In this document: one piece after another, positions 2,731-59,558 of the stretch
Layout of the letters: the number at the start of each line of letters is the position of its first letter
Numbering within the stretch: position 1 is the stretch's first letter
NCBI GenBank assembly: GCA_003599535.1
Contig: QZKQ01000131.1
Span: 22,612 to 86,611, forward strand
Direction of reading: 5' to 3'
Source of the DNA: Candidatus Zixiibacteriota bacterium
Lineage (GTDB): Bacteria > Electryoneota > B3-LCP
DNA: 64,000 bases
The notes under the pieces: model-generated
Database searches by the model: none
What the model was told of the DNA's origin: nothing
Seen by the model: the letters and a program-made list of their open reading frames with translations, nothing else
Made by a program: the position numbers and the translations under genes

Positions 2731-2731
2731 A

Positions 2732-5414: not shown

Positions 5415-5443
5415 GTCAAGATGGTAGTGGAAGGCGCTGCCGG

Positions 5444-9414: not shown

Positions 9415-9418
9415 CGCA

Positions 9419-11620: not shown

Positions 11621-11621
11621 C

Positions 11622-15061: not shown

Positions 15062-15359
15062 GGAGGAACTGAAGGCGGAAGGATACGGCGTGGACGTGGC
15101 CGATTCCGCCGACATGGCTTTTCGCCTCCTGGATGAGAATACCTATGACGTCATCGTTCTCGATATCCAGATGCCGGGAATGAACGGCCTGGAAGCCATG
15201 GGACATATCCTGCACAAGAACCGCAAGCAGACCATTATCTTGAATACTGCCTATTCCCAGTTCAAGGATGACTTCGAATCCTGGTCCGCGGATGCCTACG
15301 TGGTGAAGTCCGGCGATCTGACGGAACTGAAGGATAAGATCCGGGAGTTGGTGGGCTGA
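15006..15359 (+). CDS. Single-domain response regulator (CheY-like receiver)
   Basis: ILVVDDE, VIVLDIQMPGMNG, VKS. 118 aa. GGAGGAGG sits 6 nt upstream of the ATG. Overlaps the kinase 3' end. The stop overlaps the next gene's start (TGATG). Confidence 0.8.
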   Translation: MKKRILVVDDEKNLRILYEEELKAEGYGVDVADSADMAFRLLDENTYDVIVLDIQMPGMNGLEAMGHILHKNRKQTIILNTAYSQFKDDFESWSADAYVVKSGDLTELKDKIRELVG

Positions 15360-25116: not shown

Positions 25117-25231
25117 CACAATCTCCTTGCATGAATACATCACCATCGAAAAGAACATCCCATTCATACTCACCATAAATTACGAAATTCTCGAGAGGTG
25201 AATTGGCGCAAGCCCCTCTTCCCCACTCCCC

Positions 25232-25277
25232 GGCAGTCCCGGAAAACGCCAGGGGGCGATGCCCGGCATCGCCCCCT
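25232..25277 (-). terminator. Rho-independent terminator of T9SS paralog B
   Basis: agggggcgatgcccggcatcgccccct hairpin (25251-25277) followed by GGCGUUUUCC on the minus strand. Confidence 0.55.
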
Positions 25278-25308
25278 GCAGATGGTGCGGTAAGATTACC
25301 ACGGAATG

Positions 25309-27759: not shown

Positions 27760-27930
27760 TGCATTTCTCCTTGCGGTAATGTGTATCGGGGTACTGTGGT
27801 GAGAGAGTGCTATACCGAAGGCGGGAAAAGCTTCCGGAAGTCGCTTTCCTGCTTTAATATAATGAAGGAATTCGGATTTAGCGATAAACTTGGCTCCTTT
27901 TTTTTATCGCACGCGCGATTCTCGCCGAAG

Positions 27931-31409: not shown

Positions 31410-31642
31410 GGTATCACCAGGCATACAATCTCCAGTTAATTCCAGTTGTGGTTTGAACTAAAAATAACGATTTTATACATCAAAGTCAATGATTTATTGC
31501 AGGATGTTTGGAAGGAGAATTCAGGGTTGCGAGGTTCCATGGAGTCTCTCTCTACGTTCTATTTCTTAAGAATTTACTTGTTTTCGCGAGAACTTGGTGT
31601 TTAATTAGTTTCAACGAAGGAAAAAGGAGTTACTCATTTAGA

Positions 31643-33103: not shown

Positions 33104-33107
33104 AACC

Positions 33108-34649
33108 ATGATTCAACCTGAATCACCACCCGACCACTCTCATCGCGACCTGGCGCCAGACGCAGCGCAGAGCTCAATTCTGCGGTTGTCCTTTTGTCTC
33201 GCATCGATTGCCCTGGGCTTATTGTTGATTTGGGGAATCCTGGAATTCTCTGGTTTCAAAGTGCAAAAGCTTGAGGGGTTCCTGGCAGCTGATGGTTCAT
33301 TTGACGGCCCGGCATCCATGGCTATCCGCGCCATGAACATAGGATTGCCGGCGGCAGCGATAACCCTGTTGATTATCTCCGTGCTATGGCTGCTCTTTGA
33401 ACGATTTCATTGGAGTCCATTCCGGTTGCGGGAGAGATCTTTTCTCCTCTTCATCATCATCCTGAAATTGGGCCTCAGCCTGGCATATATTTATTCCATG
33501 CCTTATCAACCATGGACCGATGATCATTGGTATCTGACCGCTGCCCAGCATTTGTCACAAGGCATTAACCCTCATATCAACGGTCAACCCACCGCGCTTT
33601 GGCCTATCGGCTATCCCATGATCCTTTCTGTGTTTTTCCGAATATTTGGGGCTACGGTTATCGTTGCACAGTGGGTGAATGTATTGACTCTGGTAGGAAT
33701 AACCCTGTTGACCTATCACCTTGGTAAGGATCTCTTTGGAACCGCCACCGCCCGCCGCGCCGCACTGGTCATCGCGCTGATGCCGTCCCAGATCTTCTTC
33801 GCCTTGCCGATCATGTCAGACCCTCTTCAGGCTTTGCTGATGTTGGGTCTGATTTATTTAGCGATCAAACCCCTGAACAGGTGGAGAACCATTTCCATGG
33901 GATTGATCTTCGGATTTTCCATTCTGGTAAAACCGGTAATACTATTTTTTCCAGCCTTTTTGGCACTCTATTGGTATTGGAAAGGCGAACCCTTGAGAAG
34001 CACGATTTTTACTACGGCATGGATTCTAATACTGGGGATCATTACCGTTATTCCCTGGCAAATCCGCATGCAGCGCGACTTCGGCAGATTCGCCCTGGTT
34101 TCCACCCAGGGAGGACACAATATCTTGCAGGGAAATAATCCCCGGGCCAGTGGCGGAACCATGGACGTTCGCGATTTCGTCCCGGATAGCTTACTGAAAC
34201 GCTTCAGCACTCTGAATGAAGCGGAGCGTGATGCCCTGATGGCCCAAACAGGAATCGAGTGGATCAAAAATAATCCACTGTGGGCCATGCGACTCTGGAT
34301 TAAAAAATTCATAGTTCTCTTCTATGAAGACAGCAAATGTGTCTCGCGCAGTGTGCACCTCTCGTACGTAGATTTGCCCGCCGCAATGGTCGCGACGATG
34401 ATCTTCCTGACAGAAGGTTATTACTACGCCCTCGGCTTGGCTTTTCTGTTGGCTTCAGTGGGATTCCTGCGTCGGGAGCGGTTGACCGCCCGTTCCTGGT
34501 TGATTTACGGCACACTTCTCTACACCATCGCCATCCACTTGCCCTTCACCGCCGAAGGGCGTTACCATACGGTTCTCCTGCCCCTGTTCGCCATGATCGC
34601 GGTGTGGGCGATGAAGGAAACCACCTCGCGGCCGAAAAAAGCCGCCTGA
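33108..34649 (+). CDS. Glycosyltransferase family 39 (ArnT/PMT_2-like) integral membrane protein, paralog
   Basis: Paralogous to the previous gene (TALWPIGYPMILSVFFRIFG ... LLTYHLGKDLFGTATARRAALVIALMPS). Lower-GC region. Confidence 0.65.
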   Translation: MIQPESPPDHSHRDLAPDAAQSSILRLSFCLASIALGLLLIWGILEFSGFKVQKLEGFLAADGSFDGPASMAIRAMNIGLPAAAITLLIISVLWLLFERFHWSPFRLRERSFLLFIIILKLGLSLAYIYSMPYQPWTDDHWYLTAAQHLSQGINPHINGQPTALWPIGYPMILSVFFRIFGATVIVAQWVNVLTLVGITLLTYHLGKDLFGTATARRAALVIALMPSQIFFALPIMSDPLQALLMLGLIYLAIKPLNRWRTISMGLIFGFSILVKPVILFFPAFLALYWYWKGEPLRSTIFTTAWILILGIITVIPWQIRMQRDFGRFALVSTQGGHNILQGNNPRASGGTMDVRDFVPDSLLKRFSTLNEAERDALMAQTGIEWIKNNPLWAMRLWIKKFIVLFYEDSKCVSRSVHLSYVDLPAAMVATMIFLTEGYYYALGLAFLLASVGFLRRERLTARSWLIYGTLLYTIAIHLPFTAEGRYHTVLLPLFAMIAVWAMKETTSRPKKAA

Positions 34650-34893
34650 ACCGCCTCAATGTATCTCCTCCTGGACTTGCTCTGTTGCGCCAGTTCATTG
34701 TACTCTCCACTCCGCCGCCAGCGTAATCGCTTATCGCATTGATATATCATCCCTTACGCCAACAGCCCGATTTCCTCAAGGGTCTAAATTTAAAGCAAAA
34801 GTGTTGGATTTCCCCGAGGGGTGAAGTATATTTGTGGTACTTTCTGCCCGGGCGGAATCCATCTACTTTACCATAGTATTACTTGGGGGTATC

Positions 34894-35823
34894 ATGAAGA
34901 ACATCCTGGTGACCGGGGGGGCCGGTTATGTGGGCACGATGCTGGTGCCCATGCTGCTGGGGCGCGGTTACAAGGTCCGCGTCATGGATAACCTGATGTA
35001 CGGCGGCAAGGGGTTGCTGCCCTGCTTCGCTTCGAAAGATTTCGAATTCGTGAAGGGCGACGTGCGCAAGATCGAAGACGTGCGCAGCTCCCTGGACGGC
35101 ATGGACGCCGTCATCCACCTGGCCGCCATCGTCGGTTTCCCCGCCTGCAAGAAAGATCCGCAACTGGCCGAAGAAACCAATCACAAAGCTACGGTACTTC
35201 TGGAAGGCCTGCGCCACGACCGCCCGCTGATCTTCGCTTCCACCGGATCCAACTACGGCGCCCTGGTGGGCGACGTCTGCCGCGAAGATTCCCCCTTGAA
35301 TCCCCTGACCATCTATGGGTCCACCAAGACCGCCGCCGAGCAGTACCTGCTGAAGTGCGGTAACGTGGTGGTCTACCGCTACGCCACCGCCTATGGCCTG
35401 TCCTACCGCCAGCGGCTGGACCTGCTGATCAACGACTTCGTTTACCAGGCGGTCAAGAACCGCAACCTGATCATCTACGAGAAGTCCTTCAAGCGGACTT
35501 TCATCCACGTGCGCGACATCGCCGCCTCGCTGCTCTACGCCCTGGAACACTTCAACAAGATGCGCGACGAAGTGTTCAACTGCGGGTCCAACGACCAGAA
35601 TTTCAGCAAGGAAGAGGTCGCCCTGCTGATCCAGAAGCGGGTGAACTACTACCTGCACTTCGCGGAAATCGGCAAGGACGAGGACCAGCGCAACTACGAG
35701 GTATCCTACGAGAAGGTCAATAAGGCCGGATTCTTCACCACCGTGGGCATTGACGAGGGCATTGACGAGCTGATCCGTTCCATGGCCGTGGTCCAGGTGG
35801 TCAACGAATACAGCAACGTCTAA
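34894..35823 (+). CDS. NAD-dependent epimerase/dehydratase (extended SDR) acting on a nucleotide sugar
   Basis: ILVTGGAGYVG Rossmann motif. Catalytic YxxxK region (YGSTKTAAE). About 310 aa from the ATG at 34894. Confidence 0.7.
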   Translation: MKNILVTGGAGYVGTMLVPMLLGRGYKVRVMDNLMYGGKGLLPCFASKDFEFVKGDVRKIEDVRSSLDGMDAVIHLAAIVGFPACKKDPQLAEETNHKATVLLEGLRHDRPLIFASTGSNYGALVGDVCREDSPLNPLTIYGSTKTAAEQYLLKCGNVVVYRYATAYGLSYRQRLDLLINDFVYQAVKNRNLIIYEKSFKRTFIHVRDIAASLLYALEHFNKMRDEVFNCGSNDQNFSKEEVALLIQKRVNYYLHFAEIGKDEDQRNYEVSYEKVNKAGFFTTVGIDEGIDELIRSMAVVQVVNEYSNV

Positions 35824-35834
35824 AGGGGGCGGTC

Positions 35835-36788
35835 ATGGGATTCTGGAAGGGCAAGAACGTGGTGGTGACCGGGGGGTCGGGCTTCCTGGGCAGCCACGTG
35901 GTGGAAATATTGGAAGCGGAAGGGGCGCGAGTCACCGTGCCCCGCAAGCGCGATTTCAACCTGATGACGCTGGACGGCAGCCTGCGCTGTTTCCTGGAAG
36001 CCCGGCCGGACCTGGTCATCCACGGAGCGGCCTTCTACGGCGGGATCTGGATCAACCAGGTGCACCCGGGGCGGATTTACTACGAGAACCTGGTCATGGG
36101 AGCCAACGTCATCGAAGCCTGCCGCCTGGCCGGAGTGAAGAAGTTCGTGGGAGTGGGCACGGCCTGCTCCTATCCGGGCTATCTCGAAGGGCTGCTGTCC
36201 GAAGAGCGCCTGTGGGACGGCCCGCTGCACGACAGCGTGCGCAACTACGGCCTGACCAAGAAAATGATGCAGGTGCAGTGCTGGGCTTACCAGAAGCAGT
36301 ACGGCTTCAATGGCATCCACCTGATCCTGACCAACCTGTACGGTCCGCGGGATTCCTACAATCCCCAGCGGTCGCACGTGGTGGCGGCGCTGATCCGCAA
36401 GTTCGTGGAAGCGGAAATGACCCGGGCGCCGGAAGTGGAAGTCTGGGGCACGGGCAAGCCCATTCGCGAATTCCTGTACGTGCAGGACTGCGCCGAAGGT
36501 ATCGTGCGGGCCGCCGAAGTCTACGACGAGGTCGAACCGCTGAACCTTGGCACCGGCCTGGGCACCAGCATCCGCGAACTGACCGACCTGACCCACGAGC
36601 TGTCCGGCTTCCAGGGGCAGATCCGCTGGAACGCCGACAAGCCCGACGGCCAGATGGTGAAAATCCTGGACGTGTCCAAAATGAAGAAGGCGCTGGGCTG
36701 GCAACCGCCCACCAGCCTGCGGGACGGCCTGGAAAAGACCATCCACTGGTACCGCGAGCACAAGGCGGAAGCGGACGAGAGATTTTAG
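35835..36788 (+). CDS. fcl: GDP-L-fucose synthase (GDP-4-keto-6-deoxy-D-mannose 3,5-epimerase/4-reductase)
   Basis: VVTGGSGFLGSH, NLYGPRDSYNP, VWGTGKPIREFLYV. These are typical Fcl/WcaG motifs. Confidence 0.8.
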   Translation: MGFWKGKNVVVTGGSGFLGSHVVEILEAEGARVTVPRKRDFNLMTLDGSLRCFLEARPDLVIHGAAFYGGIWINQVHPGRIYYENLVMGANVIEACRLAGVKKFVGVGTACSYPGYLEGLLSEERLWDGPLHDSVRNYGLTKKMMQVQCWAYQKQYGFNGIHLILTNLYGPRDSYNPQRSHVVAALIRKFVEAEMTRAPEVEVWGTGKPIREFLYVQDCAEGIVRAAEVYDEVEPLNLGTGLGTSIRELTDLTHELSGFQGQIRWNADKPDGQMVKILDVSKMKKALGWQPPTSLRDGLEKTIHWYREHKAEADERF

Positions 36789-37157
36789 CGGTAAGCTTTA
36801 AGCTGTAAGCTGTAAGCGAACAGGGCGGCCCGGTGGCCGCCCGCTTTTATGTTACGCGTAGGGGTGGGGTTTAGCTTGTAGGGCGGACTAAGCGGCGGAG
36901 CACCGGATCCAACTTTGTTCGATGGAATTGATCCGCCGCGCAGTCCGCCGTGTGTTTCCCCCCTCACCCAGCCCCTCCACTCGTGTCATTGCGAGCGAAG
37001 CGAAGCAATCTTCGCCCCTCGCCCACCCCTAAAGGAGTAGGCTACGGCTAAAATGCAAAAGCCCCGTAAACGGGGCTCATTAGATGCGAGATGCGAGAAA
37101 GGGGCGGCCACACCGGGCCGCCCCTACTAACGACTAACGACCAACGACTAACGACTA
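36789..37157. repeat. Structured intergenic element between convergent fcl and the SBBP gene: 7-mer tandem repeats at both ends, nested inverted repeats, several terminator hairpins
   Basis: (GTAAGCT)x4 at 36792-36819. Terminator GGGCGGCCCGGUGGCCGCCC+UUUUAU at ~36822-36850. Inverted repeat taggggtggg (36859-36868) / cccaccccta (37023-37032). Long hairpin 36882-36949. Minus-strand terminators at 37056-37076 and 37100-37124. (TAACGAC)x4 at 37127-37154. Confidence 0.6.
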
Positions 37158-38456
37158 TTTCAGCAGCACGATCTTCTGCACCTGCGACACCTCCCCCGCC
37201 GTCAGTCTCACCAAATACACCCCCGACGGCAGCCCCGTCCCATCGAAACTCACCTCGTGCGATCCCGCCGGGTACCATGCCTCCCCCTGTAGGGGCGGGC
37301 CGATGTGCCCGCCCCCGGGGCGACCACATAGGATCGCCCCTACATTCCGTCCTCCCGTGTCGAACACCTCCAGCCTCACATACCCCGCCGCCGGCAGGCC
37401 GAAGCGGAGGGTGGTCACCGGATTAAACGGATTGGGGTAAACGGACAGGGTGAACTCCTCGGCCACGACGAAGCGCCACGCAGTGGCCCTTGGTGGTGGC
37501 CCTCCAGGCTCGCCGGGGAAGGGGTCGCCCCAATTTTCATTGTTATAGACGAAGGCGCCGCTCCCGTCCGTGGCGGACTTGGTGAAGGTGAAGTAGCTGG
37601 AATCCCAGATGCTGCCGGATGCGTAGATCCCGGCATAGCCCACGTAGGTGTATTCCCCGGGAGGATTGGTTCCGGCCACGTTCTGGGCGCGGCCAAAGGT
37701 GAGGTCGGCGCCAACAGGCACATTGGTCAGGCGGAAGGGCCCCAGAATCCCTATCCAGTTCCCGTCGGGGGAATACCAGCCGCTCCACACCTGGAATTCT
37801 TGAGTCAGGCCGGAGAGGTTCTGAATCCGGACTTGGTAATCGAAGCTGCCGCCGGTGGCGGGGATGACGAGGGGCGGGTTCACGGGCGTCAGGGTGGTCT
37901 CCAGGGGTTGCCCCCCAGCCTCGGTCTTGATCAGGTAAACATCCCAACTACCTGCGCCGCAGGACCACGTCTCTCCAGCGATGACGTACCCACCGTCCGC
38001 CGTCTGTTGCACGCTGCGACCAAAATCACCACTGCTCCCGCCGAATGCCTGCTGCCAAAGCGGGTTGCCGGAGGCGTCGGTCTTGACCAGGTAAACATTA
38101 TAACTGCCAGCGCCGTAGGGCCATGTCTCTCCGGCGATGACATACCCGCCGTCCGTGGTCTGCTGCACGCTGTAACCATAATCATAATAGCTCCCGCCGA
38201 AGGTGCGCTGCCAGACCGGGTTTCCCTCCGCGTCGGTCTTGACCAGGTAAACGTCATGGTAGCCTAAGCCGAAGGACCAGGTGTATCCGGCGATGATGTA
38301 CCCGCCGTCCGTAGTCTGCTCCACGCTGGAACCATAATCATAACTGCTCCCGCCGAAGGTGCGCGTCCAGAGCGTATCGGGCGGCTGGGCGCCGGCCCCC
38401 GCAGCCAGCCCCAGCCCTCCCACCGCCAGCAGACTGATCCATAATGATTTCTTCAC
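37155..38456 (-). CDS. Secreted protein with three SBBP-type beta-propeller repeats and a T9SS C-terminal domain
   Basis: Signal peptide. Three ~48-aa repeats of FGGSSYDYGxSVQQTxDGGYxIAGETW ... DVYLVKTD. C-terminus YPNPFNPVTTLRF ... GVYLVRLTAGEVSQVQKIVLLK. Confidence 0.75.
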   Translation of the reverse strand: MKKSLWISLLAVGGLGLAAGAGAQPPDTLWTRTFGGSSYDYGSSVEQTTDGGYIIAGYTWSFGLGYHDVYLVKTDAEGNPVWQRTFGGSYYDYGYSVQQTTDGGYVIAGETWPYGAGSYNVYLVKTDASGNPLWQQAFGGSSGDFGRSVQQTADGGYVIAGETWSCGAGSWDVYLIKTEAGGQPLETTLTPVNPPLVIPATGGSFDYQVRIQNLSGLTQEFQVWSGWYSPDGNWIGILGPFRLTNVPVGADLTFGRAQNVAGTNPPGEYTYVGYAGIYASGSIWDSSYFTFTKSATDGSGAFVYNNENWGDPFPGEPGGPPPRATAWRFVVAEEFTLSVYPNPFNPVTTLRFGLPAAGYVRLEVFDTGGRNVGAILCGRPGGGHIGPPLQGEAWYPAGSHEVSFDGTGLPSGVYLVRLTAGEVSQVQKIVLLK

Positions 38457-39565: not shown

Positions 39566-40936
39566 ATGTTCATCGACTCCCACGCCCACCTGGATTTCCC
39601 TGAACTGAAGCCCCACCTGGACGCGGTCCTGGCCAACGCCCGCATGGCCGGCGTCACCCACATCCTGACGGTGGGCATTGACGGCGCCACCAACCAGGCG
39701 GCGTACGATATCGCCCGGGCGCACGAAAGCGTGTACGCCTCGGCGGGGTGGCACCCCCACGACGTCTCCAGGGCCGACGCCGGGCTGGAACGCCACCTGG
39801 AAGATTTCCTGTCGCGCCCCAAGGTCGTGGCCCTGGGCGAAGCGGGGCTGGACTACTACCGCGACCTCTCCCCGCGGGACACCCAGCGGGAAGTCTTCGC
39901 CCGCATTGTCCGGCTGGCCCGGCGGCTGGACCGGCCGCTGATCGTCCACTGCCGCGACGCCTTCCCCGACACGTTTGAGATCCTGCATCGCGAGGGCGAA
40001 GGGCAGGTCAAGGGGGTGTTCCACTGCTTTTCCGGCGGGCCGGACGAGCTGCGCAAAGCGCTGCACCTGGGCTTCTTCGTCTCGTTTACCGGCAACATCA
40101 CCTACAAGAACACGGCCCTCCTCCCCACCCTGCAGGCCGCTCCAGTGGACCGCCTGCTGCTGGAAACCGACTGCCCCTTCATGACCCCGCATCCGCACCG
40201 GGGCAAACGCAACGAACCGGCCTACGTGCCCCTGGTGGCGGCCAAAATTGCTGAAGTCAAGGGCCTGTCGGTGGAGGACGTGGCCCGCATTACCCGCTAC
40301 AACACCTGGCGGCTGTTCGGTATCGGCGAAGCCCCCGAGCAGCGGTTCGTCTATCCCATCCGCAATTCGCTCTACGTGGCCCTGACCTCCCGCTGCACCA
40401 ACGACTGCCGTTTCTGCCCCCGGCACGTGCATCCGGTGGTCAAGGGGCATTATATCGGCATGACGGAAGCCGAAGAGCCATCCCCCGACCAGGTCATCGC
40501 CGCGCTGTCGGACCTGGGGAATTACGACGAAGTGGTCTTCTGCGGGTTCGGCGAACCGACCATCCGCCTGGAAGAGTTGAAGCAGATTGCCCGGTGGGTA
40601 AAAGGACAGGGCAGGAAGGTGCGGCTGGACACCAACGGCCAGGCCAACCTGATCCACGGCCGGGACATCGTCCCCGAACTGGCGGGGTTGGTAGACGCCG
40701 TCTCCATCAGCTTGAACGAGCACCGCGCCGACCTGTACCAGGCCCTGGTGCACAGCGAGTTTGGGGAGGCCGCCTTTCAGGCGCTGCTGGATTTCGCCCG
40801 GCGGTGCGTGGAATTGCTGCCCGAAGTGACGCTGTCTGTGGTGTCGTATCCGGGAGTGGACCTGGAGGCGGCGCGGAAGGTGGCCGAAGGCACCGGGGCG
40901 AAGTTCCGGGTGCGGGAATACAACGAGGTTGGGTAA
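39566..40936 (+). CDS. Fusion protein: TatD-family metal-dependent hydrolase (N) plus TatD-associated radical SAM-like domain (C)
   Basis: MFIDSHAHLDF, GLDYYRD, ETDCPF (TatD). Then SRCTNDCRFCPRH (CxxxCxxC) and a ~190-aa partial radical-SAM fold. Confidence 0.7.
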   Translation: MFIDSHAHLDFPELKPHLDAVLANARMAGVTHILTVGIDGATNQAAYDIARAHESVYASAGWHPHDVSRADAGLERHLEDFLSRPKVVALGEAGLDYYRDLSPRDTQREVFARIVRLARRLDRPLIVHCRDAFPDTFEILHREGEGQVKGVFHCFSGGPDELRKALHLGFFVSFTGNITYKNTALLPTLQAAPVDRLLLETDCPFMTPHPHRGKRNEPAYVPLVAAKIAEVKGLSVEDVARITRYNTWRLFGIGEAPEQRFVYPIRNSLYVALTSRCTNDCRFCPRHVHPVVKGHYIGMTEAEEPSPDQVIAALSDLGNYDEVVFCGFGEPTIRLEELKQIARWVKGQGRKVRLDTNGQANLIHGRDIVPELAGLVDAVSISLNEHRADLYQALVHSEFGEAAFQALLDFARRCVELLPEVTLSVVSYPGVDLEAARKVAEGTGAKFRVREYNEVG

Positions 40937-45918: not shown

Positions 45919-47154
45919 CTACCGTCCCTTCCTTTCCCGGCGCCGGCGGGCGGAGCCGGTCTGCTCGATAACAATGTAAGCGACGAAGATAACCATTAGC
46001 CCGCCGATAAAGATGTAGTAGAACTGCCGCACTATGAATACTCCTGGGGAGTTTTCAAAGGTGGCCGCGACGTGCATCTTGCCCTCGGTAAATTTCTCAC
46101 CGGCATTGGGATGGCACCGGCCGCAGGTGTGGGCCAGATTGGCGGGATGGATGGTGGAAGCCGGATCGGAGGGTGGCAGCACCTTGTGGAATCCGTGGCA
46201 GGAGGCGCAGTTGGCTACCAGGGTGCGGCCGTAGTGGTTGGCCACGCCGTGATAGCTATCCTTGTATGTCGCGAAACGATCCGCGGACAGGCCGTACTTA
46301 TCGGTCAACTGCACATTGCCGTGGCACTTTCCGCAGGTTTCCGGGACGTTGGCGGGAGCTACCCGGGAAGAGGCCATATCCGGTGCTTCGATAGTGTGTT
46401 CGCCGTGACAGTCCGTGCAGACGGGGGAATCGGTCACCCCTTTGGCCAGCTCCTGTCCATGGATTGAGGTGCGGTAATCTTCGACAACCTGCGCATGGCA
46501 TTGGCCGCAGGTGTGGGGAATTTGCGGTTTGTGGACCGGCGAATCGGGATCATCGGCGGGCAGGATGTGATGGCTGCCGTGGCAGTCGACGCATTCCGCC
46601 ACGCTGGTCTGGCCTTCCTGCATCATGCGGCCGTGGACGCTCTTCTGGTAGGCTTTGACGATCACGCCGCTGCCGGCATGGACCTCCTGGTCGGCATGGC
46701 AGCTCAAGCAGGCAGCGTTGATATTGCGGCGATGGGTGCGGGAGGTGGGATCATCTGACGCCTTCACGCCGTGATAGCCGTGGCAGGCGACGCAGGCTGG
46801 GCCGGCGGGGCGGTCGGACCGCACCAGTTCGGCGTGTGACGACTGGGCCAATTCACGACCTTCCAGTGCATGGCAGGAGGCACAGTCTACGGGATTTTTT
46901 TCCGGGGGGTGCGGCCACTGGGTTACACGGGCCAGTTCGCGGTGGCAGAAGGTGCAGCCGATCTCCGCATGGACAGATTGACGATGGCTTTCCACGTCAA
47001 TAAAGAGGGAGATTTTGCCGCCGGAGGAGTCCGTTTTGGCAAGCTGGGGTTGGCCGTGACATTCCTGGCACTGACTATCCGGAGGCTGCGCGGAAGTCAT
47101 CAGGGGCAGAAACAACCATCCCAGCAGCAGGAGGGTTCTTGAGCCTGTGAGCAT
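45919..47154 (-). CDS. Periplasmic eleven-haem c-type cytochrome with C-terminal TM anchor (paralog of 44194-45237)
   Basis: Signal peptide. 11 CxxCH (CQECH, CTFCH, CASCH, CVACH, CLSCH, CVDCH, CGQCH, CTDCH, CGKCH, CASCH, CGRCH). Hydrophobic C-terminal helix. Confidence 0.8.
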   Translation of the reverse strand: MLTGSRTLLLLGWLFLPLMTSAQPPDSQCQECHGQPQLAKTDSSGGKISLFIDVESHRQSVHAEIGCTFCHRELARVTQWPHPPEKNPVDCASCHALEGRELAQSSHAELVRSDRPAGPACVACHGYHGVKASDDPTSRTHRRNINAACLSCHADQEVHAGSGVIVKAYQKSVHGRMMQEGQTSVAECVDCHGSHHILPADDPDSPVHKPQIPHTCGQCHAQVVEDYRTSIHGQELAKGVTDSPVCTDCHGEHTIEAPDMASSRVAPANVPETCGKCHGNVQLTDKYGLSADRFATYKDSYHGVANHYGRTLVANCASCHGFHKVLPPSDPASTIHPANLAHTCGRCHPNAGEKFTEGKMHVAATFENSPGVFIVRQFYYIFIGGLMVIFVAYIVIEQTGSARRRRERKGR

Positions 47155-51838: not shown

Positions 51839-51866
51839 CAGGGGCGCATCACCATGCGCCCCCTTG
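51839..51866 (-). terminator. Rho-independent terminator of selA
   Basis: GGGGGCGCAUGGUGAUGCGCCCC hairpin followed by UGUUAUUUAAGUAAUU on the minus strand. The adjacent AT-rich 51709-51830 probably carries the nfeD promoter. Confidence 0.6.
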
Positions 51867-51903: not shown

Positions 51904-53346
51904 TTATTTTACTTTCCCTGAAGGTACACTTGTCGTGAAGTTTTTCTTTTTAAGCGCGCCGGCCAGAATTTCGGCCAGGAGCGCGATCTCCTCGTCAGGG
52001 ACGGCCTTCAAGTCGAGCAGGAGCGCCTCGCGCTGGAGGTATCCCACCACTGGAGGATTTTCTCTTCTCAGCCCCTGGGCCAGGACGGCGGCAGGCATCC
52101 CGCGGACGGACACGCGCAGGGCCGCCGAGGGGAATTCTTCCAGCGGCAGCGCGCCGGAGCCCAACTGGGCTTTGGCGGGGACAATTTCCACGGTAACTTC
52201 TTCCGGCAAACCCAGGGTGTCGAGCCGGTCCCGCAGCGCCTGCGCCCGGCTCTGGGCGGCTTCCGGAGATTCGGCCAGCCGGGCCAGCACCGGGTGATGT
52301 TCCAACAGCCGTTCCGGCGCCAGGTAGAGCTTCAGGGTCTCTTCCAGCAGCGCCAGGGTGAACTTATCCGGCCGCAGGGCGCGCATCAGCGGATTCTTGC
52401 GGACCTTCGCCAGGGTTTCCCGCCGGCCCACCAGGATGCCGGCCTGCGGCCCGCCCAGGATTTTGTCGCCACTGAACGTCACCACGTCCGCGCCCGCGAC
52501 CACCCCGGCAGAAGCCAGCGGTTCGGGCGGCAGGCCCCAGCGCGCCAGGTCCAGGAGGACCCCGCCCCCCAAGTCGTGGATCAGGGGCACGTTATACCGG
52601 CGGCAGAGCCCGGCCAACTCCCCGATCTCCACCTCGTGCACGAATCCTTTCACGCGGTAGTTGCTGGTGTGAGCCAGCAGCACGGCGCCGGTTTTGGGCG
52701 AGAGGGCGGCCTCGTAATCCTGCAGGTAGGTGCGGTTGGTGGTACCGACTTCTACCAGGCGCGCGCCCGATTTGCGCATCACTTCCGGCAACCGGAAGGA
52801 CCCGCCGATCTCGATCAACTGGCCTCGGGAGACGATCGCTTCCCGGCGGTTGGCCAGGGTGTTCAGGGCCAGGAGTACGGCGGCGGCGTTGTTGTTGACC
52901 ACCGCGGAACTCTCCGCTCCGGTGAGAAATTCCAGCAGGTCGCCCAGGGTGTCCTGGCGGTCGCCGCGCTGTCCGGTGGCCAAGTCCAGTTCCAAGTTGC
53001 AGGCCCCCCGGACGCGTTCGAAGGCGCGGCGGAAGGCTTCGTCCAGCAGCGGAGCGCGCCCCAGGCCGGTGTGCAGGAGAATTCCGGTGGCATTAATGAC
53101 ACGCTGCAGCCTGGGCTCCAGGAAGGCCTCCAGCCGAATCTGAACGCGGCGGATCAGGATCTCCATGTCCGGGACCGCCTCCGCGCCGGCCAGGAGATCC
53201 TGGCGCGATTCTTCGATGGCGTCGCGGGCGAAGCGCTTGATCAGTTCGTGCGACCAGGCAGCGGCCAGATCCCGGAGCGGGGGCGTCTCCAGCAGCGCGT
53301 TGACCTGGGGAAGAGCCTTCAGGCGGGATTGCAGAACAGCGTCCAT
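51904..53346 (-). CDS. selA: L-seryl-tRNA(Sec) selenium transferase
   Basis: PLP-lysine region FSGDKILGGPQAGILVG. Length and conserved blocks typical of SelA. Confidence 0.8.
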   Translation of the reverse strand: MDAVLQSRLKALPQVNALLETPPLRDLAAAWSHELIKRFARDAIEESRQDLLAGAEAVPDMEILIRRVQIRLEAFLEPRLQRVINATGILLHTGLGRAPLLDEAFRRAFERVRGACNLELDLATGQRGDRQDTLGDLLEFLTGAESSAVVNNNAAAVLLALNTLANRREAIVSRGQLIEIGGSFRLPEVMRKSGARLVEVGTTNRTYLQDYEAALSPKTGAVLLAHTSNYRVKGFVHEVEIGELAGLCRRYNVPLIHDLGGGVLLDLARWGLPPEPLASAGVVAGADVVTFSGDKILGGPQAGILVGRRETLAKVRKNPLMRALRPDKFTLALLEETLKLYLAPERLLEHHPVLARLAESPEAAQSRAQALRDRLDTLGLPEEVTVEIVPAKAQLGSGALPLEEFPSAALRVSVRGMPAAVLAQGLRRENPPVVGYLQREALLLDLKAVPDEEIALLAEILAGALKKKNFTTSVPSGKVK

Positions 53347-53523: not shown

Positions 53524-54939
53524 TCAGTAGTTCTTGATGTTGCGGATGCCGATCCAAACGGCATGGAAGAAGCCGTTGCCCGATTCCCGCAGGTAGCGGA
53601 TGAAGTAGGTGCCGATGAAGATCACGTTGTAGAGCGGGTCCAGGTTGACGTGCGCCAGCTTGCGGATGACGGGGATGAACCAGGGGAATTTCACCCCCAG
53701 GTAAAACAGCTTCTGGACGCGAATGACTTCCTTGATCTCCGGTTGGTTCAAACGGCTGGAGCGGAACACCGATTTGCCCATGCTGTCTATGGTGAAATCG
53801 GCCTCCAGGTAGCCCATCTGCCGGGCGATGGCCTCGGTCTGGGTGCCGGGGTGCGGCTGGTAGATGGCGTGCCAGGGATAATCCACCTTGGCCTGGGCGT
53901 TCAGACGGACCGTGTCCAGGGCTTCTTCCAGGGTTTCCGAAGGGCATCCCAGGATGTTGTACGCGGTCACTTTGACGCCGTTGCGGTGGAGCATGTCCAC
54001 GGCCTTCAGGAATTGCTCGTTGGTCACTCCCTTGCCCATGATGATGTTGCGCACCCGCGGATTGCCCGATTCCAACCCCATCATGACGTGGTGGCAGCCG
54101 TACCGGCCCAGGAGCTGCGCCACGCGCTCCTTCATCATGTTGATGCGCGCCTGGCAACCGAAGGGTATGCCGACTTCCTTCTGGTACATGGGCAGGAATT
54201 TTTCCAGCCACTCGACGTCGTAGATGAAGATGTCGTCGTTGAAGATCACCCGCCTGGTGGGGAAGCTGTTCTTGCAGCGCACCAGCTCCTCGATGACCCG
54301 TTCGGGAGAATTGCGGCGCAGGATCTCCTTCCCCTTCAGGTTGTACATCTTGCGAAATTCCTGGTTGAAGCAGAAGTAGCAGTTGTGGGGGCAGCCCCGG
54401 CCGCTCATGAACTGCTTGTGGTAGGAATCGCGCAGGGTGGGATATTTATAGTAGAAGTGCCGGTCGGCGATGGGGTACTTGTCCAGGTTGGGTTCCAAGG
54501 GGCGCAGGGGATTGCTGATGATCTCCCCGTTGCGCTTGGTCACCAGGTTGGGGATGTGGAGGTAATCTTCCCCCCGGTCGTGTGCGTCCAGGAAATCCGC
54601 CAGGGCTTCTTCGGCCTCGCCGCGGATGATAACGTCCACTTCTTCATGCTGGATGGCCTGCGGGAAATAGGAAACGTAGGGTCCCCCGAAAATGGTCCCC
54701 ACCCCCAGGCGCTCTTTGACCTCACCGGCCAGGCGGTAGTTCTCGTGGTGCAGCCCGGCAATGGAGGAGAACCCCACCCAGTCCGGTTTGAAATCTTTCG
54801 CCTTATCCCAGAAGGCCTGGCCTTCCGCGGATCGTATCAGCACTTCGACTTCATGCCCCCTGGCCGGCAGATACCCGCACAAGGAGAGTACGCCCGGGTA
54901 TTCGAACTGGGAGTCATGGACGAAGAGCAACCTTGCCAT
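53524..54939 (-). CDS. B12-binding-domain radical SAM protein (class B), paralog 1
   Basis: N-terminal B12-binding-like Rossmann (LLFVHDSQFEY ... DWVGFSS). CPHNCYFC CxxxCxxC cluster. ~470 aa. Confidence 0.7.
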   Translation of the reverse strand: MARLLFVHDSQFEYPGVLSLCGYLPARGHEVEVLIRSAEGQAFWDKAKDFKPDWVGFSSIAGLHHENYRLAGEVKERLGVGTIFGGPYVSYFPQAIQHEEVDVIIRGEAEEALADFLDAHDRGEDYLHIPNLVTKRNGEIISNPLRPLEPNLDKYPIADRHFYYKYPTLRDSYHKQFMSGRGCPHNCYFCFNQEFRKMYNLKGKEILRRNSPERVIEELVRCKNSFPTRRVIFNDDIFIYDVEWLEKFLPMYQKEVGIPFGCQARINMMKERVAQLLGRYGCHHVMMGLESGNPRVRNIIMGKGVTNEQFLKAVDMLHRNGVKVTAYNILGCPSETLEEALDTVRLNAQAKVDYPWHAIYQPHPGTQTEAIARQMGYLEADFTIDSMGKSVFRSSRLNQPEIKEVIRVQKLFYLGVKFPWFIPVIRKLAHVNLDPLYNVIFIGTYFIRYLRESGNGFFHAVWIGIRNIKNY

Positions 54940-55140
54940 AGGAGTATCCTGGTAATTCTGCGGATATAAGTCATTGCATATAATGTAACAAAAAACACCG
55001 GGGAGTATCAAGACTTTTCCCCGGAATCTGCACGTAAGGCGAAGATCGCCCGCGCAGTGGCGTTCACTTTCTTTAAACCCAGAAAACCCTTCGCACGCGC
55101 GGCGAAGGGTTTTCTGGCAAGCGGAGGGATACGGGGAAAA

Positions 55141-56556
55141 TCAGTAGTGCTTCAGATTCCTGGCGCTGAACAGAATCGCCTGCCAGAGGCTGGCGCCGGA
55201 TTCGCCCACGTAACGGATGAAGTAGGTGATCAGAAAGATCAGGGTGTAAATCGGTCCCAGGTTGTAGCGCACCACCCGGCGTATGACCGGGATGAACCAG
55301 GGCATCTTGGCCCCCAAGTAGAAGAACTTGTGCACCCGCTCCACCTCGCGGATCTGGGGCTGCTTCAACAGGCTTCTTCCGAACACGGAGCGGCGTTGCT
55401 CTTCCACTGTGAAATTGGAATCCAGGTAGCCGTGCGCCCGGGCGATGGCGTCGGTCTGTGTGCCCGGGTGGGGATTGTAGAGCCCGAACCAGGGGTAATC
55501 CACCTTGGCTCGGGCGTTCAAGCGGACCGTGTCCAGAGCTTCATCCAGAGTCTCCGTGGGACACCCCAGGATGTTGTAGGCAGTGACCTTGACGCCGTAC
55601 TTGTGCAGCAGGTCGGCGGCCCTCAGGAATTGCTCATTGCTGAAGGTTTTTCCCATGATCTGATGGCGAACCCGGGTGTTGCCGGATTCCAGCCCGATCA
55701 TGACATGGTGGCACCCCCCCATGCCCAGCAGCCGGGCGATGCGATCCGTCACCATCTCGACCCGCGCCTGGCAGCCGAAGGGCACGTTGATTTCCTTTTT
55801 ATAGCGGGGTAGAAATACTTCCAGCCATGCGGGGTCCAGGATGAAGATGTCATCGTTGAACACCAGCCGCTTTACGGGCCACCGGGACTTGCACTGCGCC
55901 AGCTCTTCGATCATCCGCTCGGGGGAATGGCGACGCAACAGCTCTTTTCCTTTAATATCATAGAGCTTGCGGAATTCCTGGTTGAAGCAGAAATAGCAGT
56001 TGTAGGGGCAACCCCGGCCACTCATGAATTGCTTGTGGTAGGCGTTGCGGATGTGGGAATACTTGTAATAGATGGAACGGTTGGGAATGGGGTACTTGTC
56101 GAGGTTGCTTTCCAGCGGGTGAGGGGGGTTGGCGAGGACCTGGCCGTTGCGCTTGGTCACGATGCTGGGCAGGGAAACGTAGTCTTCGCCCCGGTCGTGG
56201 CTGTCCAGGAACAGCAGCAGGGACTCTTCGGCCTCGCCGCGGATGATGACGTCCACTTCCTCGTGTTGGATGGCTTGGGGGAAGTAGGAGACGTAGGGGC
56301 CGCCGAAGACGGTCCCGACCCCCAGTTTTTCCCTGGCCTCCCGAGCCAGGCGGTAGCACTGGTGATGCCGGCTGAAGATGGAAGAGAAGCCGACCCAATC
56401 CGGCTTGATCTCCCTGGCCTTATCCCACAGTGCCGCGCCTTCGCAGGATTCGACCAGCACTTCAACCGTATGCCCCTTCGATTGAAGATAACCGCTCAGA
56501 GAAAGAACACCCGGATACTCGAAGGGAGAATCATGGACGAAGAGTAACGTGGCCAT
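55141..56556 (-). CDS. B12-binding-domain radical SAM protein (class B), paralog 2 (tandem duplicate, ~75% identical)
   Basis: MATLLFVHDSPFEY ... CPYNCYFC. Collinear with paralog 1 over the full length. Confidence 0.7.
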   Translation of the reverse strand: MATLLFVHDSPFEYPGVLSLSGYLQSKGHTVEVLVESCEGAALWDKAREIKPDWVGFSSIFSRHHQCYRLAREAREKLGVGTVFGGPYVSYFPQAIQHEEVDVIIRGEAEESLLLFLDSHDRGEDYVSLPSIVTKRNGQVLANPPHPLESNLDKYPIPNRSIYYKYSHIRNAYHKQFMSGRGCPYNCYFCFNQEFRKLYDIKGKELLRRHSPERMIEELAQCKSRWPVKRLVFNDDIFILDPAWLEVFLPRYKKEINVPFGCQARVEMVTDRIARLLGMGGCHHVMIGLESGNTRVRHQIMGKTFSNEQFLRAADLLHKYGVKVTAYNILGCPTETLDEALDTVRLNARAKVDYPWFGLYNPHPGTQTDAIARAHGYLDSNFTVEEQRRSVFGRSLLKQPQIREVERVHKFFYLGAKMPWFIPVIRRVVRYNLGPIYTLIFLITYFIRYVGESGASLWQAILFSARNLKHY

Positions 56557-56737
56557 ATTTTCTCCTATCGGTTCACCGCATGTTTTCAATTTAAAATATT
56601 TTCATGCTATTGTCAAGCATTATTATTAAAATTACAATATTATTTTGATATTAGGATATTCAGTAGGGACAACAAAAAAGGACTACCGGTATATCCGGTA
56701 GTCCTTTCCGGCGGCTCGAGCCGCTTCATTCACAGGA

Positions 56738-58183
56738 TCATTGGATCTGCACCACTTCCACCGGCCCCAGGATTTCCAAGTTCGGGGCGATATCATCGGC
56801 CTTGGACACCACTACCATGACCATGTCCTCCGGGTGCAGGTACTTCTGCGCCACCCGGCGCACGTCCTCCGCGCTCACCGCTTCGATCCGGGAACGGTAC
56901 TTCTCGATGTAATCGGCTCCCAGTTCGAACAGGTCAATGTTCAGGAGCTGTCCGGCGATCTGGCTGGGAGTTTCGAAGTTCAGTGGATAGCTGCCGGTCA
57001 TATAGGACTTGGCTTCGGCCAGTTCCTGCTCGGTGGGGCCTTCCTGCTGGTACTGCTTCACCAGGTCAATGGTCCCCTGGATGGCTTCCAGGATGGACTC
57101 GTTCTTGGTGAAGGTATCAATCACGAACGGCCCGGTCTGCTTGCGGGCGGAGAAGTAGGAAGAGATGCCGTAGGTCAATCCCTTCTCGGCGCGGATGGTC
57201 TTCATCATGCGGGAAGCGAATCCGCCGCCGCCCATGATGTAGTTCATCACCATCAGGGGGAAGTAGTCTTCGCTGCGGCGGTCAACGCCCAGATGCCCCA
57301 AGCGGATCTGGGCCTGGGTGGCGTCCGGCTTGTTGACCACGTAGACGCGGTATCCGGTGGGGGCCGGCGGCAACTGGGCCTGTGGTGCGGCGTGGGAAGC
57401 GCCTTTCCAATCCCCCAGCAGTTTTTCCGCCAGGCGGAAGCCCTCCTTGGCGCTGACGTCGCCGACCACCGCCAGTGTGCTGTGCCCGGGCGCGAAAACT
57501 GTGCGGTACTGCGCCAGGACGTCATCCCGGGTGAAGGCTGCCACCGTCTCTTCCGTGCCGCCGATGGGCTGGGCGTAGGGGTACTGCCCGAACAGGCGCC
57601 GGTCGAACTCCTCATCCGCCAGCACGTCCGGTTGATCCTTGCTGTTCTCGATACCGGACAGGGTCTGCTGCCGCAGGCGTTCGATCTCTTCCGGGGCGAA
57701 GCTGGGATGGAGAGTCACCTGCCGCATCAATTCGACGGCGGTGTCCAGGTACTTGGCCAGGACGGTCGTCTCCACGTGGGAGGCGTCCCAGCTGCTGCCC
57801 GCGCCCAGGCTGCCGCCCACGAAGTCAATCTTATCCGCGATCTGGGTGGCGGAATATTTTTCCGTGCCCTGGGTCAGCAGCCCGGTCATGAACTGAGTCA
57901 GGCCGGCTTTGCCCGGGGGATCGTAGAAGCTGCCCGCCCGGGCCTGCAAGCGCAGACTGACCACCGGCAGTTCATGATGTTCCACCACGATGACTTTCAG
58001 ACCGTTCTTCAGGGTTTTCTCGTGGATGGGGGGCAACTTGACTGGCGCCAGAGCCGGGTTGGCCGGCGGGGTGTAGGTCGGAACCGCGTCAGGTTTGTCC
58101 GGCTGGGCGCCGGCGCCGGCCGGCAGCATAAGCATCCCCGCGATCAACAGGCCGGCGATGAGGGTTACAGGTCGTAGCATGGT
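56738..58183 (-). CDS. M16-family peptidase, non-catalytic (beta-like) subunit
   Basis: Signal peptide. M16 fold. No HxxEH motif. Confidence 0.7.
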   Translation of the reverse strand, partial: TMLRPVTLIAGLLIAGMLMLPAGAGAQPDKPDAVPTYTPPANPALAPVKLPPIHEKTLKNGLKVIVVEHHELPVVSLRLQARAGSFYDPPGKAGLTQFMTGLLTQGTEKYSATQIADKIDFVGGSLGAGSSWDASHVETTVLAKYLDTAVELMRQVTLHPSFAPEEIERLRQQTLSGIENSKDQPDVLADEEFDRRLFGQYPYAQPIGGTEETVAAFTRDDVLAQYRTVFAPGHSTLAVVGDVSAKEGFRLAEKLLGDWKGASHAAPQAQLPPAPTGYRVYVVNKPDATQAQIRLGHLGVDRRSEDYFPLMVMNYIMGGGGFASRMMKTIRAEKGLTYGISSYFSARKQTGPFVIDTFTKNESILEAIQGTIDLVKQYQQEGPTEQELAEAKSYMTGSYPLNFETPSQIAGQLLNIDLFELGADYIEKYRSRIEAVSAEDVRRVAQKYLHPEDMVMVVVSKADDIAPNLEILGPVEVVQIQ

Positions 58184-58199
58184 CATTCCTCCTTCTGGA

Positions 58200-59558
58200 T
58201 CAACGCTGGCCCATGGGTTCATTTTCGGGGATCAGGATTACCGTGGTGCGGTTGGTGGGGACGAAATACTTACCCACCACCTCGGCCACCTTCTCGGCCG
58301 TCACCGCCTGGTACTTGGACGGGATCTCGAACAGCAGCCGCCAATCGCCCGCCACGGTCTGGTACATGCCCAGGTTGTTGGCCTTGCGGGAATTGGTCTG
58401 CATGGCCAGGATGAAATCGGCCTCCAACTGGTTCTTGGCCTTCTGCAGCTCTTCGGGAGTGGGGGGATTCTGGGCCATGCCCTCGATGATGCCGAACAGC
58501 GCCTTTTCACCCGCCTCGATGTCATGGCCGATGGCCATGCCGCAGTAGGCGTAGAAGAGGCTGGGGTCCTTGGCCTCGTCGGCGGCACCGCCGGCGTACA
58601 GAGCGATCTGATCCTCGTAAACCATTTTGCGGTAGATGCGAGAGCTTTCCCCGTCGGACAGGATCTTCTGCGCCACGGCCAGGGCGGGCATATCCTCGTG
58701 GGCCATTTCCGGGATGTGATAGCCGCCGAACAGCATGGGCAGTTGCGCCCGGCGGTGCAGGTACACCCGACGCTCACCGCGCTGCGGCGGTTCCACGGTG
58801 GCCACCTCCGGAGGCGGCTCCTGGGCGGGAATGGCGCCGTAATACTTCTCCACGGTCTTGACCGCGTCCTCGGTTTTGAAGTCGCCCACGATCACCACGG
58901 TGGCATTGTTGGGGGCGTAGTGGATGCGGTGGTACTCCCGGCAATCTTCCAGGGTGATGGCGTTCAGGTCGGACATCCAGCCGACGATGGGCCACTGGTA
59001 GGGGTGCGCCGTATAAGCGTTGGCCATGAGCTGCTCGACCACGTCACCGAAGACGTTGTTGTCGGTGCGCATGCGGCGCTCTTCCTTGACCACCTCCCGC
59101 TCGGAAGCCAGGTTCTCCGCGGTGATGGCCAGGTTGGCCTGGCGCTCGGCTTCCATGGCGACGACCAGTTCCAGCTTGTCCGAGGCGATGTTCTCGTAGT
59201 ACACCGTCATATCATTGGAGGTGAAGGCGTTCAGCCGCCCTCCCTGCGCCTGGACGATATTGGCGTGCTCTTCCGGCCCGTACTTCTTCGATCCCTTAAA
59301 CATCATGTGCTCGAAGAGGTGGGAGATGCCGGTAATGCCGGGCCGTTCGTTGCGCGACCCGACGTTGAACCACACCTGGTAGGAAACCACGGGCGCGGAA
59401 TGATCTTCCCAGGCCAGGATGCGCAGACCGTTGGGCAGGATGTGTTCGCTGACGCCGGTGGCGGGAATGATGGGCCCGCCCTGGGTCTTGGGCTCATCGG
59501 CCCGAACGCCGGCCGTCATTCCCAGCAGCAGGGCCAGCGCCAGGATGAGTCGTTTCAT
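58200..59558 (-). CDS. M16-family zinc peptidase (insulinase/pitrilysin-like), catalytic subunit
   Basis: Signal peptide. Inverted zincin motif HLFEHMMFKG with a downstream Glu (EREVVKEE). Confidence 0.8.
   Translation of the reverse strand: MKRLILALALLLGMTAGVRADEPKTQGGPIIPATGVSEHILPNGLRILAWEDHSAPVVSYQVWFNVGSRNERPGITGISHLFEHMMFKGSKKYGPEEHANIVQAQGGRLNAFTSNDMTVYYENIASDKLELVVAMEAERQANLAITAENLASEREVVKEERRMRTDNNVFGDVVEQLMANAYTAHPYQWPIVGWMSDLNAITLEDCREYHRIHYAPNNATVVIVGDFKTEDAVKTVEKYYGAIPAQEPPPEVATVEPPQRGERRVYLHRRAQLPMLFGGYHIPEMAHEDMPALAVAQKILSDGESSRIYRKMVYEDQIALYAGGAADEAKDPSLFYAYCGMAIGHDIEAGEKALFGIIEGMAQNPPTPEELQKAKNQLEADFILAMQTNSRKANNLGMYQTVAGDWRLLFEIPSKYQAVTAEKVAEVVGKYFVPTNRTTVILIPENEPMGQR

Follow-up and report, generated by a model that had tools for sequence, protein, structure and literature searches.

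What do two adjacent radical S-adenosylmethionine (SAM) enzymes act on when no obvious pathway partner is encoded beside them? This question is raised by a stretch of 64,000 nucleotides from a Candidatus Zixiibacteriota bacterium (contig QZKQ01000131.1, positions 22,612 to 86,611; hereafter the window), in which two genes for B12-binding, class-B radical SAM proteins, here called rSAM-A and rSAM-B, are found in tandem. Class-B radical SAM enzymes perform chemically difficult alkylations and, to our knowledge, most of the tens of thousands of their sequence clusters have no known substrate. The pair is a new, uncharacterised member of this known enzyme class, in which orphan B12 radical SAM genes are very common, and its duplication is in itself unremarkable. 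Taken alone, the finding in the window is an ordinary orphan pair. The outcome of the analysis is rather a redirection, since the pair belongs to a subfamily of about 470 residues that is found repeatedly in loci of the O-antigen or capsule type, where three to six paralogues often form an array. This association with surface polysaccharides is a useful, if modest, lead to the substrate.

Architecture, family and duplication of the pair

The start of each gene was taken as the ATG located behind an AGGA/AGGAG ribosome-binding site, which results in proteins of 471 residues (coordinates in Table 1). A first-pass annotation, made from the sequence alone, had described two head-to-tail class-B radical SAM genes of about 470 residues, with a CP(H/Y)NCYFC cluster motif and about 75% identity. 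The tandem arrangement, here on the minus strand, and the domains were confirmed, and the motif was present in both translations, as GCPHNCYFC in rSAM-A and GCPYNCYFC in rSAM-B. The identity had been set too high: BLASTP aligned the two proteins without gaps from end to end, with 320 identities in 471 positions (68%), 83% positives and E = 0. The Pfam B12-binding family (PF02310) matched residues 16-116 with 54 bits in rSAM-A and 51 bits in rSAM-B, against a gathering score of 32.1, and Radical_SAM matched residues 180-346 with 82 and 77 bits, against 29.5. Across 36 aligned family sequences, C183, C187 and C190 were invariant, whereas K410 and P423 were kept in at least 90%. To judge from the sequence, both copies are probably functional, because every invariant residue of the family is retained. 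In the databases, rSAM-A is 100% identical to P0001 and rSAM-B corresponds to P0002, both named as radical SAM proteins of a Candidatus Zixiibacteriota metagenome-assembled genome (MAG); P numbers denote homologous database proteins and L numbers the loci carrying relatives. No signal peptide was found in either protein. A transmembrane anchor in the C-terminal helices was also considered and rejected, as the maximum Kyte-Doolittle average was 1.1-1.4 and no transmembrane segment was present.

An AlphaFold2 model of rSAM-A, computed from an alignment of 36 homologues, reached a mean predicted local distance difference test (pLDDT) score of 93.9 and a predicted template-modelling score (pTM) of 0.90. 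It consists of a Rossmann domain with five alternating beta-alpha units (residues 3-121), a beta hairpin and linker, the radical SAM barrel (approximately 174-360) and a C-terminal bundle of five helices (402-466). In a Foldseek search of the PDB, the top matches were MgmA (9ccb), CysS, TsrM, TokK, AprD4 and OxsB (E = 1e-23 to 1e-16), with TM-scores of about 0.6-0.7, 15-18% identity and alignments spanning 430-530 columns. Membership in the radical SAM superfamily is therefore seen in the CxxxCxxC motif, in the Pfam score and in the modelled barrel, and the class-B architecture in an N-terminal Rossmann-type B12-binding domain found by Pfam, in the model and by Foldseek. The cobalamin-binding-like N-terminal fold that had been proposed at first reading was thus recovered by structure prediction. 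Four of the matches, MgmA, CysS, TsrM and TokK, are solved cobalamin-dependent methylases that share the Rossmann domain and the barrel (E = 1e-23 to 1e-19; query-normalised TM-scores of about 0.65-0.68). However, they are only 16-18% identical, carry other C-terminal domains and act on a protein glutamine, an aryl ether, tryptophan and a carbapenam, respectively. By analogy with these methylases, rSAM-A and rSAM-B would use cobalamin, and a two-SAM methyl-cobalamin mechanism is presumed to be common to them.

Comparison with the curated NCBIfam models, with scores given for rSAM-A and then rSAM-B against the curated cutoff, revealed only weak similarities. The best curated match of both copies was HpnJ (TIGR03471; 109 and 93 bits against 577.6), and the second-best was ApyD (NF050148; 96 bits against 750). 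Further scores were obtained for BchE (TIGR02026; 82 and 78 against 481), PhpK (81 against 600), MgmA/MJ0865 (TIGR04014; 78 and 69 against 360), the ladderane-type model (TIGR04072; 77 and 75 against 360), the TIGR03975 model for radical SAM C-methyltransferases of peptides that are ribosomally made and then modified post-translationally (RiPPs; 62 against 282), HpnR (60 and 56 against 650), AprD4 (NF033070; 59 and 54 against 500) and BzaD (52-65 bits). In the case of MgmA, the host of the model is a methanogen with methyl-coenzyme M reductase, whereas the host here is a bacterium. HpnP was absent from the best 25 of the 27 families matched by rSAM-A at E <= 0.01 and from all 21 matched by rSAM-B. 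Since no score approaches its cutoff, the two proteins are true orphans, as had been supposed, and their family stands apart from all the curated ones. The first reading was also right that hopanoid, bacteriochlorophyll and RiPP partners are missing nearby, according to a Pfam scan of the neighbours and a search for open reading frames (ORFs) in the gaps.

The close family is small. About 30 proteins at least 44% identical were found among 5.8 billion clustered sequences, the named ones belonging to Zixibacteria, LCP-89 and WOR-3. At least two close members were present in a set of 185,579 species, each represented by a single genome, and a scan of metagenome contigs provided few further ones among the matches listed. 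A representative search returned 2,626 sequences at E <= 1e-30 and 37,867 at E <= 1e-3. More than 150 cluster representatives, 31-40% identical and scoring 268-385 bits, aligned from end to end with the C-terminal domain included. The pair is therefore part of a large subfamily of about 470 residues, which has no name and is distantly similar to HpnJ and BchE.

In a neighbour-joining (NJ) tree, rSAM-A and rSAM-B were sisters nested among single-copy homologues of the same synteny, which reads M16-M16-rSAM-DnaJ in L002 and M16-M16-rSAM-DUF6029-selA-NfeD in L005, L006 and L098. No second complete copy was detected in the other close-family loci examined. The duplication is lineage-specific and recent, the close relatives being single-copy. 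In L092, a stop-bounded remnant (273-578) that covers only the final 102 residues of another copy and shares 52-54% identity with the two window proteins was found between an M16 gene and the intact radical SAM copy. Therefore, duplication at this site happened, or started decaying, more than once. Of the two copies, rSAM-B is slightly more diverged (62 versus 64% identity to the L005 protein and 59 versus 63% to the L098 protein). The identity between them falls from 77% in the Rossmann domain and 72% in the barrel to 58% in the linker and 53% in the C-terminal helical domain. The two copies probably differ in substrate or in the position acted on, as copies differing in substrate or regiochemistry would give such uneven divergence, in which the cofactor parts are kept and the rest diverges. 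We infer that the diverged linker and C-terminal domain face the substrate.

The relatives and their neighbours also differ from the window in gene content. L005, the closest relative with one radical SAM copy, carries a DUF6029 gene of 528 aa (11512-13098) between this copy and selA, and so do L006 and L098. A DUF6029 gene is missing from the window, where rSAM-A is separated from selA by 177 bp and the extra copy lies between the M16 genes and rSAM-A.

Glycan clusters of the relatives and a tentative role in sugar tailoring

The closest relatives with an informative context belong to arrays of B12 radical SAM genes located in clusters of the O-antigen or capsule type (L016, L124, L009, L003 and L120). 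They resemble the pair in their 33-57% identity over the full length, including the C-terminal domain, and in the occurrence of tandem paralogues, and they are likewise uncharacterised. In contrast, the window pair lies outside any glycan cluster. In L003 (57% identity), the homologue is preceded by genes for glycosyltransferase family 1 (GT1), rSAM-SPASM and an epimerase, and is followed by those for a pyruvyl transferase, three CapK-like ligases, an M14 peptidase and a Wzx flippase. L120 (56%) is of the same kind in another order, with pyruvyl transferase, Wzx, nitroreductase, the homologue, CapK, M14, CapK and AMP-ligase. Six B12 radical SAM genes are found in L009/L012 (45%; 1-11413) with an acetyltransferase, GT9, DUF1848 and GT2, and the homologue of this locus groups in the NJ tree with P0027, a protein named as belonging to Zixibacteria. 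In L016 (33%), from an Omnitrophota MAG, a DegT-GT4 fusion, a GDP-mannose 4,6-dehydratase, an epimerase and GT9 precede four B12 radical SAM genes (8463-15148), which are followed by GT2, Wzy and Wzx. Three such genes lie in L124 (33%; 4252-10881) amid GT2, GT4, GT22/PMT_2, YdjC, methyltransferases, an epimerase, a GHMP kinase and DegT. Additionally, the next gene in L105 (35%) encodes a Wzx flippase, and in P0088 (28%) a sugar-nucleotide epimerase/dehydratase is fused to a B12 radical SAM module.

A pooled Pfam scan of 74 neighbours in 13 wider-family loci placed B12 radical SAM paralogues and protein kinases first, followed by epimerase/dehydratase, GT2 and Wzx families, and no lipid-synthesis family was found among the 25 most frequent. 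As in the window, the glycan-cluster paralogues matched no curated family, HpnJ being their usual best weak match. Membership of the pair in the same subfamily is indicated by full-length collinearity over about 470 residues, C-terminal domain included, at 31-57% identity to relatives located in polysaccharide loci.

These contexts suggest that rSAM-A and rSAM-B are cytoplasmic class-B enzymes that would perform radical tailoring of a carbohydrate in a cell-envelope glycan or glycoconjugate, a tentative reading to which we give somewhat less than an even chance. The most likely chemistry would be C-methylation, with dehydration or ring rearrangement as the alternative. In such a mechanism, the [4Fe-4S] cluster on C183/C187/C190 would reductively cleave SAM to a 5'-deoxyadenosyl radical, which would take a hydrogen from an unactivated sugar carbon, and methyl-cobalamin held in the N-terminal Rossmann domain would give its methyl group to the sugar carbon. 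The two paralogues would act at different positions or on different substrates. Sugar tailoring is considered likelier than lipid modification because the relatives sit in polysaccharide clusters, not in lipid pathways.

The two best matches to known enzymes, HpnJ among the curated families and AprD4 among the PDB sequences, also favour this reading, since both act on sugar rings. The substrate of HpnJ is the sugar-derived head group of a glycolipid. HpnJ resembles the pair in its length of about 470 residues and full-length collinearity, and is also the best match of most glycan-cluster paralogues. However, the score lies far below its cutoff and no hpn or shc gene is found nearby, indicating that they are not orthologues. 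AprD4 (6fd2; E = 9e-15, TM-score 0.69), an aminoglycoside 1,2-diol dehydratase, acts on a sugar ring, but the pair falls far short of the AprD4 family cutoff, and AprD4 is cobalamin-independent despite its Rossmann-like domain. Finally, tandem paralogue arrays are typical of the glycan clusters, and the window pair mirrors them.

Several observations weigh on the other side. Glycan clusters made up only about a third of the independent contexts that were examined, the rest being uninformative. Among the latter are the LCP-89 locus, where the gene lies between cargo genes of the type IX secretion system (T9SS), and L121, where a tandem pair occurs in a housekeeping setting. In the window, L002, L005 and L092, the genes belong to a conserved housekeeping/envelope block rather than to a glycan cluster, and in the window about 17 kb separate the pair from the nearest glycan-type genes, which encode two PMT_2 proteins and two epimerases and lie at 31.5-36.8 kb. 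No family member is characterised, and function may differ between members that are 33-57% identical. Furthermore, fold and sequence are insufficient to show cobalamin binding, because AprD4 has a Rossmann-like domain of the same fold yet does not use cobalamin.

If sugar tailoring is correct, the subfamily would be the first B12 radical SAM clade recognisable as tailoring the sugars of bacterial surface polysaccharides, a claim for which doubt slightly outweighs confidence. In the literature searched, no characterised precedent was found for B12 radical SAM enzymes in O-antigen or capsule clusters. The envelopes of Zixibacteria, Omnitrophota and further uncultured bacteria would then be predicted to contain unusual sugars tailored by radical chemistry, which may be C-methylated or branched. 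The arrays of six, four and three paralogues (L009/L012, L016 and L124) would predict heavily radical-tailored surface glycans.

Alternative substrates

Modification of membrane lipids, which the first-pass annotation had suggested, survives best among the alternatives and is nevertheless improbable. The enzymes would methylate or cross-link hydrocarbon chains, and the two paralogues would provide two regiochemistries, as in HpnP/HpnR or GrsA/GrsB. Class B does include the lipid modifiers HpnP, HpnR, GrsA/B and Gmm, and the lipid-modifying radical SAM enzymes reviewed so far comprise Tes, Mss, Gms, Gmm, Grs, HpnP/R/J and ladderane candidates (PMC13459092, PMC11214058). The archaeal tetraether-lipid enzymes Gmm, GrsA and GrsB belong to the same enzyme class as the pair, and paralogue pairs or several copies per genome are common in the Gmm and Grs families (PMC11214058). 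Moreover, archaeal homologues 25-33% identical to the pair were found in Thermococcus, Hadesarchaea and Bathyarchaeota, taxa with reported Gmm homologues (PMC11214058). However, these align over residues 16-420 approximately, without the C-terminal domain specific to the family. The Thermococcus homologue (L018, a candidate Gmm) adjoins an rSAM-SPASM gene of 379 aa without the N-terminal extension of about 100 aa described for Gms.

The aromatic-rich, amphipathic C-terminal helices of the model could touch a membrane, but the pair has no transmembrane segment. The HpnJ and ladderane-type similarities (109 and 77 bits) are in the same direction, but these scores, like that of HpnR, are far under the cutoffs, and no HpnP match is listed. 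In L007, a UbiA prenyltransferase lies two genes from selA. Nonetheless, lipid-biosynthesis genes neither adjoin the pair in the window nor appear among the frequent neighbour families of the relatives, whose informative contexts are glycan clusters. No hpn/shc, bch or Fab/ACP gene was present among the Pfam-scanned neighbours in the window, and no tes, mss or gms gene was seen near any family member. The literature searched contained nothing relevant on a link between Zixibacteria radical SAM enzymes and lipids. A role in lipids, as first suggested, is not supported by these data. In its most specific version, the pair would be mid-chain methylases for bacterial branched or membrane-spanning lipids of the branched glycerol dialkyl glycerol tetraether (brGDGT) type in uncultured members of the FCB group, with two paralogues for two methyl positions. 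This is very improbable, because glycan clusters surround the relatives and lipid genes were not observed, and a long-standing question would be touched only if the lipid reading, of low probability as it is, were true.

A peptide or protein substrate is unlikely to a greater degree. The pair would then be a RiPP-type or protein C-methyltransferase, like PoyC, ApyD, Mmp10 or MgmA, with the neighbouring M16 pair as processing peptidases, like AlbE/AlbF or PqqF. Indeed, M16 pairs accompany some RiPP radical SAM systems, the second-best NCBIfam match is ApyD, and MgmA, which C-methylates a protein glutamine, ranks first among the structural matches. However, the 96 bits to ApyD fall far short of its cutoff of 750, and the search for small precursor-peptide ORFs, which had been recommended at first reading, found only unconserved chance ORFs. 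No conserved ORF of at least 20 aa was detected in the three intergenic gaps, which are themselves unconserved in L002, L005 and L092. One candidate precursor, a 29-aa ORF at 56640-56729, was rejected, as it overlaps the terminator-like hairpin and is matched by no ORF in either L002 or L005. The M16 proteins, together with the redoxin and SppA encoded before them, have signal-peptide-like N-termini and would act outside the cytoplasm. The M16 genes are separated from rSAM-B by a strong terminator-like hairpin and a promoter-like site, and their adjacency is limited to the Zixibacteria synteny block, being absent from the LCP-89 locus, from the WOR-3-related L003/L120 and from all wider-family loci. 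Since the M16 pair is secreted, terminator-separated and a neighbour only within this block, it is unlikely to be a partner. These properties, together with the missing conserved small ORF, make a RiPP system using the M16 pair unlikely.

About equally doubtful is the tailoring of a cofactor or small metabolite, in the manner of BchE, BzaD or PhpK, the pathway being encoded elsewhere in the genome. The scores to these three models are similarly weak (82, 81 and 52-65 bits for BchE, PhpK and BzaD), and the housekeeping location in Zixibacteria would suit core metabolism. On the other hand, all these scores are far under their cutoffs, no cofactor-pathway gene lies beside any member, and the family is very patchy and rare among genomes, with at least two close members in the species-level genome set.

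The remaining neighbour, selA, was found adjacent to or one gene away from a family member in the window, in L005/L006/L098 (13108-14526 in L005), in L092 (2386-3447) and in L007/L008 (7823-9250 in L007). In L007/L008 the order is reversed, selA preceding the radical SAM gene, the selA product is 38% identical to that of the window and the GC content is 47%, versus about 61%. In contrast, no selA adjoins the family gene in L002, the LCP-89 locus, the WOR-3-related L003/L120 or any of the wider-family loci, and no tRNA-Sec, selB or selD gene was found near the genes. This recurrence could reflect either inherited synteny or a real link. The hairpin in the gap between rSAM-A and selA is not significant (z = -1.6), and rSAM-A and selA are possibly co-transcribed. 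A role in making or modifying a selenium metabolite or in maturing a selenoprotein has the slightest chance of all, for although the adjacency is repeated, reversed order and divergent selA included, and a terminator follows selA while none that is convincing precedes it, inherited synteny could account for this arrangement, selA is not beside the gene in the loci just named, the selenocysteine genes are missing nearby, no family member has an in-frame TGA and we know of no biochemical precedent. A selenocysteine codon hidden in N-terminally truncated homologues was considered separately and rejected. P0028 (384 aa; L120 4292-5755), the best case among several such homologues, proved to have a miscalled start: the full B12-binding domain is in frame from 4292, with a non-canonical start codon read as Ile, and this N-terminus contains no TGA.

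Organisation of the locus and further features of the window

All genes of the block are on the minus strand and are transcribed in the order DUF58, SppA (S49), redoxin, M16, M16, rSAM-B, rSAM-A, selA and NfeD, followed by a hypothetical gene, SPFH, a pseudouridine synthase, a further hypothetical gene and a multihaem cytochrome. At first reading, selA had been placed upstream and the M16 pair downstream. That these genes flank the pair is correct, but the direction is reversed: because all genes lie on the minus strand, transcription reaches the upstream M16 pair first and the downstream selA last of these genes.

Candidate transcription signals are listed in Table 1. The hairpin between the M16 genes and rSAM-B, whose coordinates were taken from the dot-bracket string, had a predicted folding energy of -32.6 kcal/mol (z = -4.3), and none of 200 shuffled sequences was as stable. 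Six promoter-like sites were found in the region, versus 2.8 expected. No riboswitch or other Rfam family reached its gathering score in the 64-kb window, L002, L005 or L007, and no tRNA gene was found in the window.

Table 1. Genes and candidate transcription signals around the tandem radical SAM pair (window coordinates)
Feature	Position	Strand	Description
terminator-like hairpin	51840-51863	minus	after selA; 10-bp stem with 7 GC pairs; likely end of the transcription unit
selA	51904-53346	minus	L-seryl-tRNA(Sec) selenium transferase; PF03841 (446 bits) and Se-cys_synth_N; 177 bp downstream of rSAM-A
rSAM-A	53524-54939	minus	471 aa; B12-binding and Radical_SAM; C183-x3-C187-x2-C190, CPHNCYFC
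promoter-like match	54982-55011	minus	TTGATA-18-TACATT, extended -10 TG, 9/12, upstream of rSAM-A; weak evidence
hairpin	55079-55117	minus	about 16 bp, just past the rSAM-B stop; -30.7 kcal/mol, z = -3.45, weak U tail
rSAM-B	55141-56556	minus	471-aa paralogue of rSAM-A; CPYNCYFC
sigma-70-like promoter match	56588-56616	minus	TTGACA-17-TAAATT, 10/12, upstream of rSAM-B; consensus match only
intrinsic-terminator-like hairpin	56665-56709	minus	15-bp stem followed by UUUUUUGUUGU (U tract), immediately past the second M16 gene, ahead of rSAM-B
M16 peptidase pair	56738-58222 and 58200-59558	minus	64-77% identical to L002/L005 genes with Peptidase_M16 and Peptidase_M16_C

Elsewhere in the window, a gene at 39566-40936 (plus strand) encodes an unusual combination in 456 aa, a complete TatD-type DNase/hydrolase domain (residues 3-252, 271 bits) fused to a radical SAM domain (273-439, 57 bits). 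A low-GC island (31508-36788, plus strand; GC 0.50-0.57 versus about 0.61) contains two tandem 530-aa PMT_2/ArnT-like glycosyltransferase paralogues with a 47-bp overlap, followed by two NAD-dependent sugar epimerase/dehydratases. It may be a horizontally acquired glycosylation module. Three tandem proteins of 561, 816 and 798 aa (23491-30327, minus strand) have InhA-like MAM domains, two of them with a T9SS C-terminal sorting domain, and a further T9SS-tailed protein is encoded at 37155-38456. At the edge of the conserved block, the gene at 45919-47154 (minus strand) encodes a multihaem c-type cytochrome with MtrC/NrfB-like motifs, and in L005 (18966-21323) genes for a Ni_hydr_CYTB-type cytochrome b and a further multihaem cytochrome come after that of the multihaem cytochrome. 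These cytochromes hint that the Zixibacteria concerned transfer electrons in the periplasm or outside the cell.

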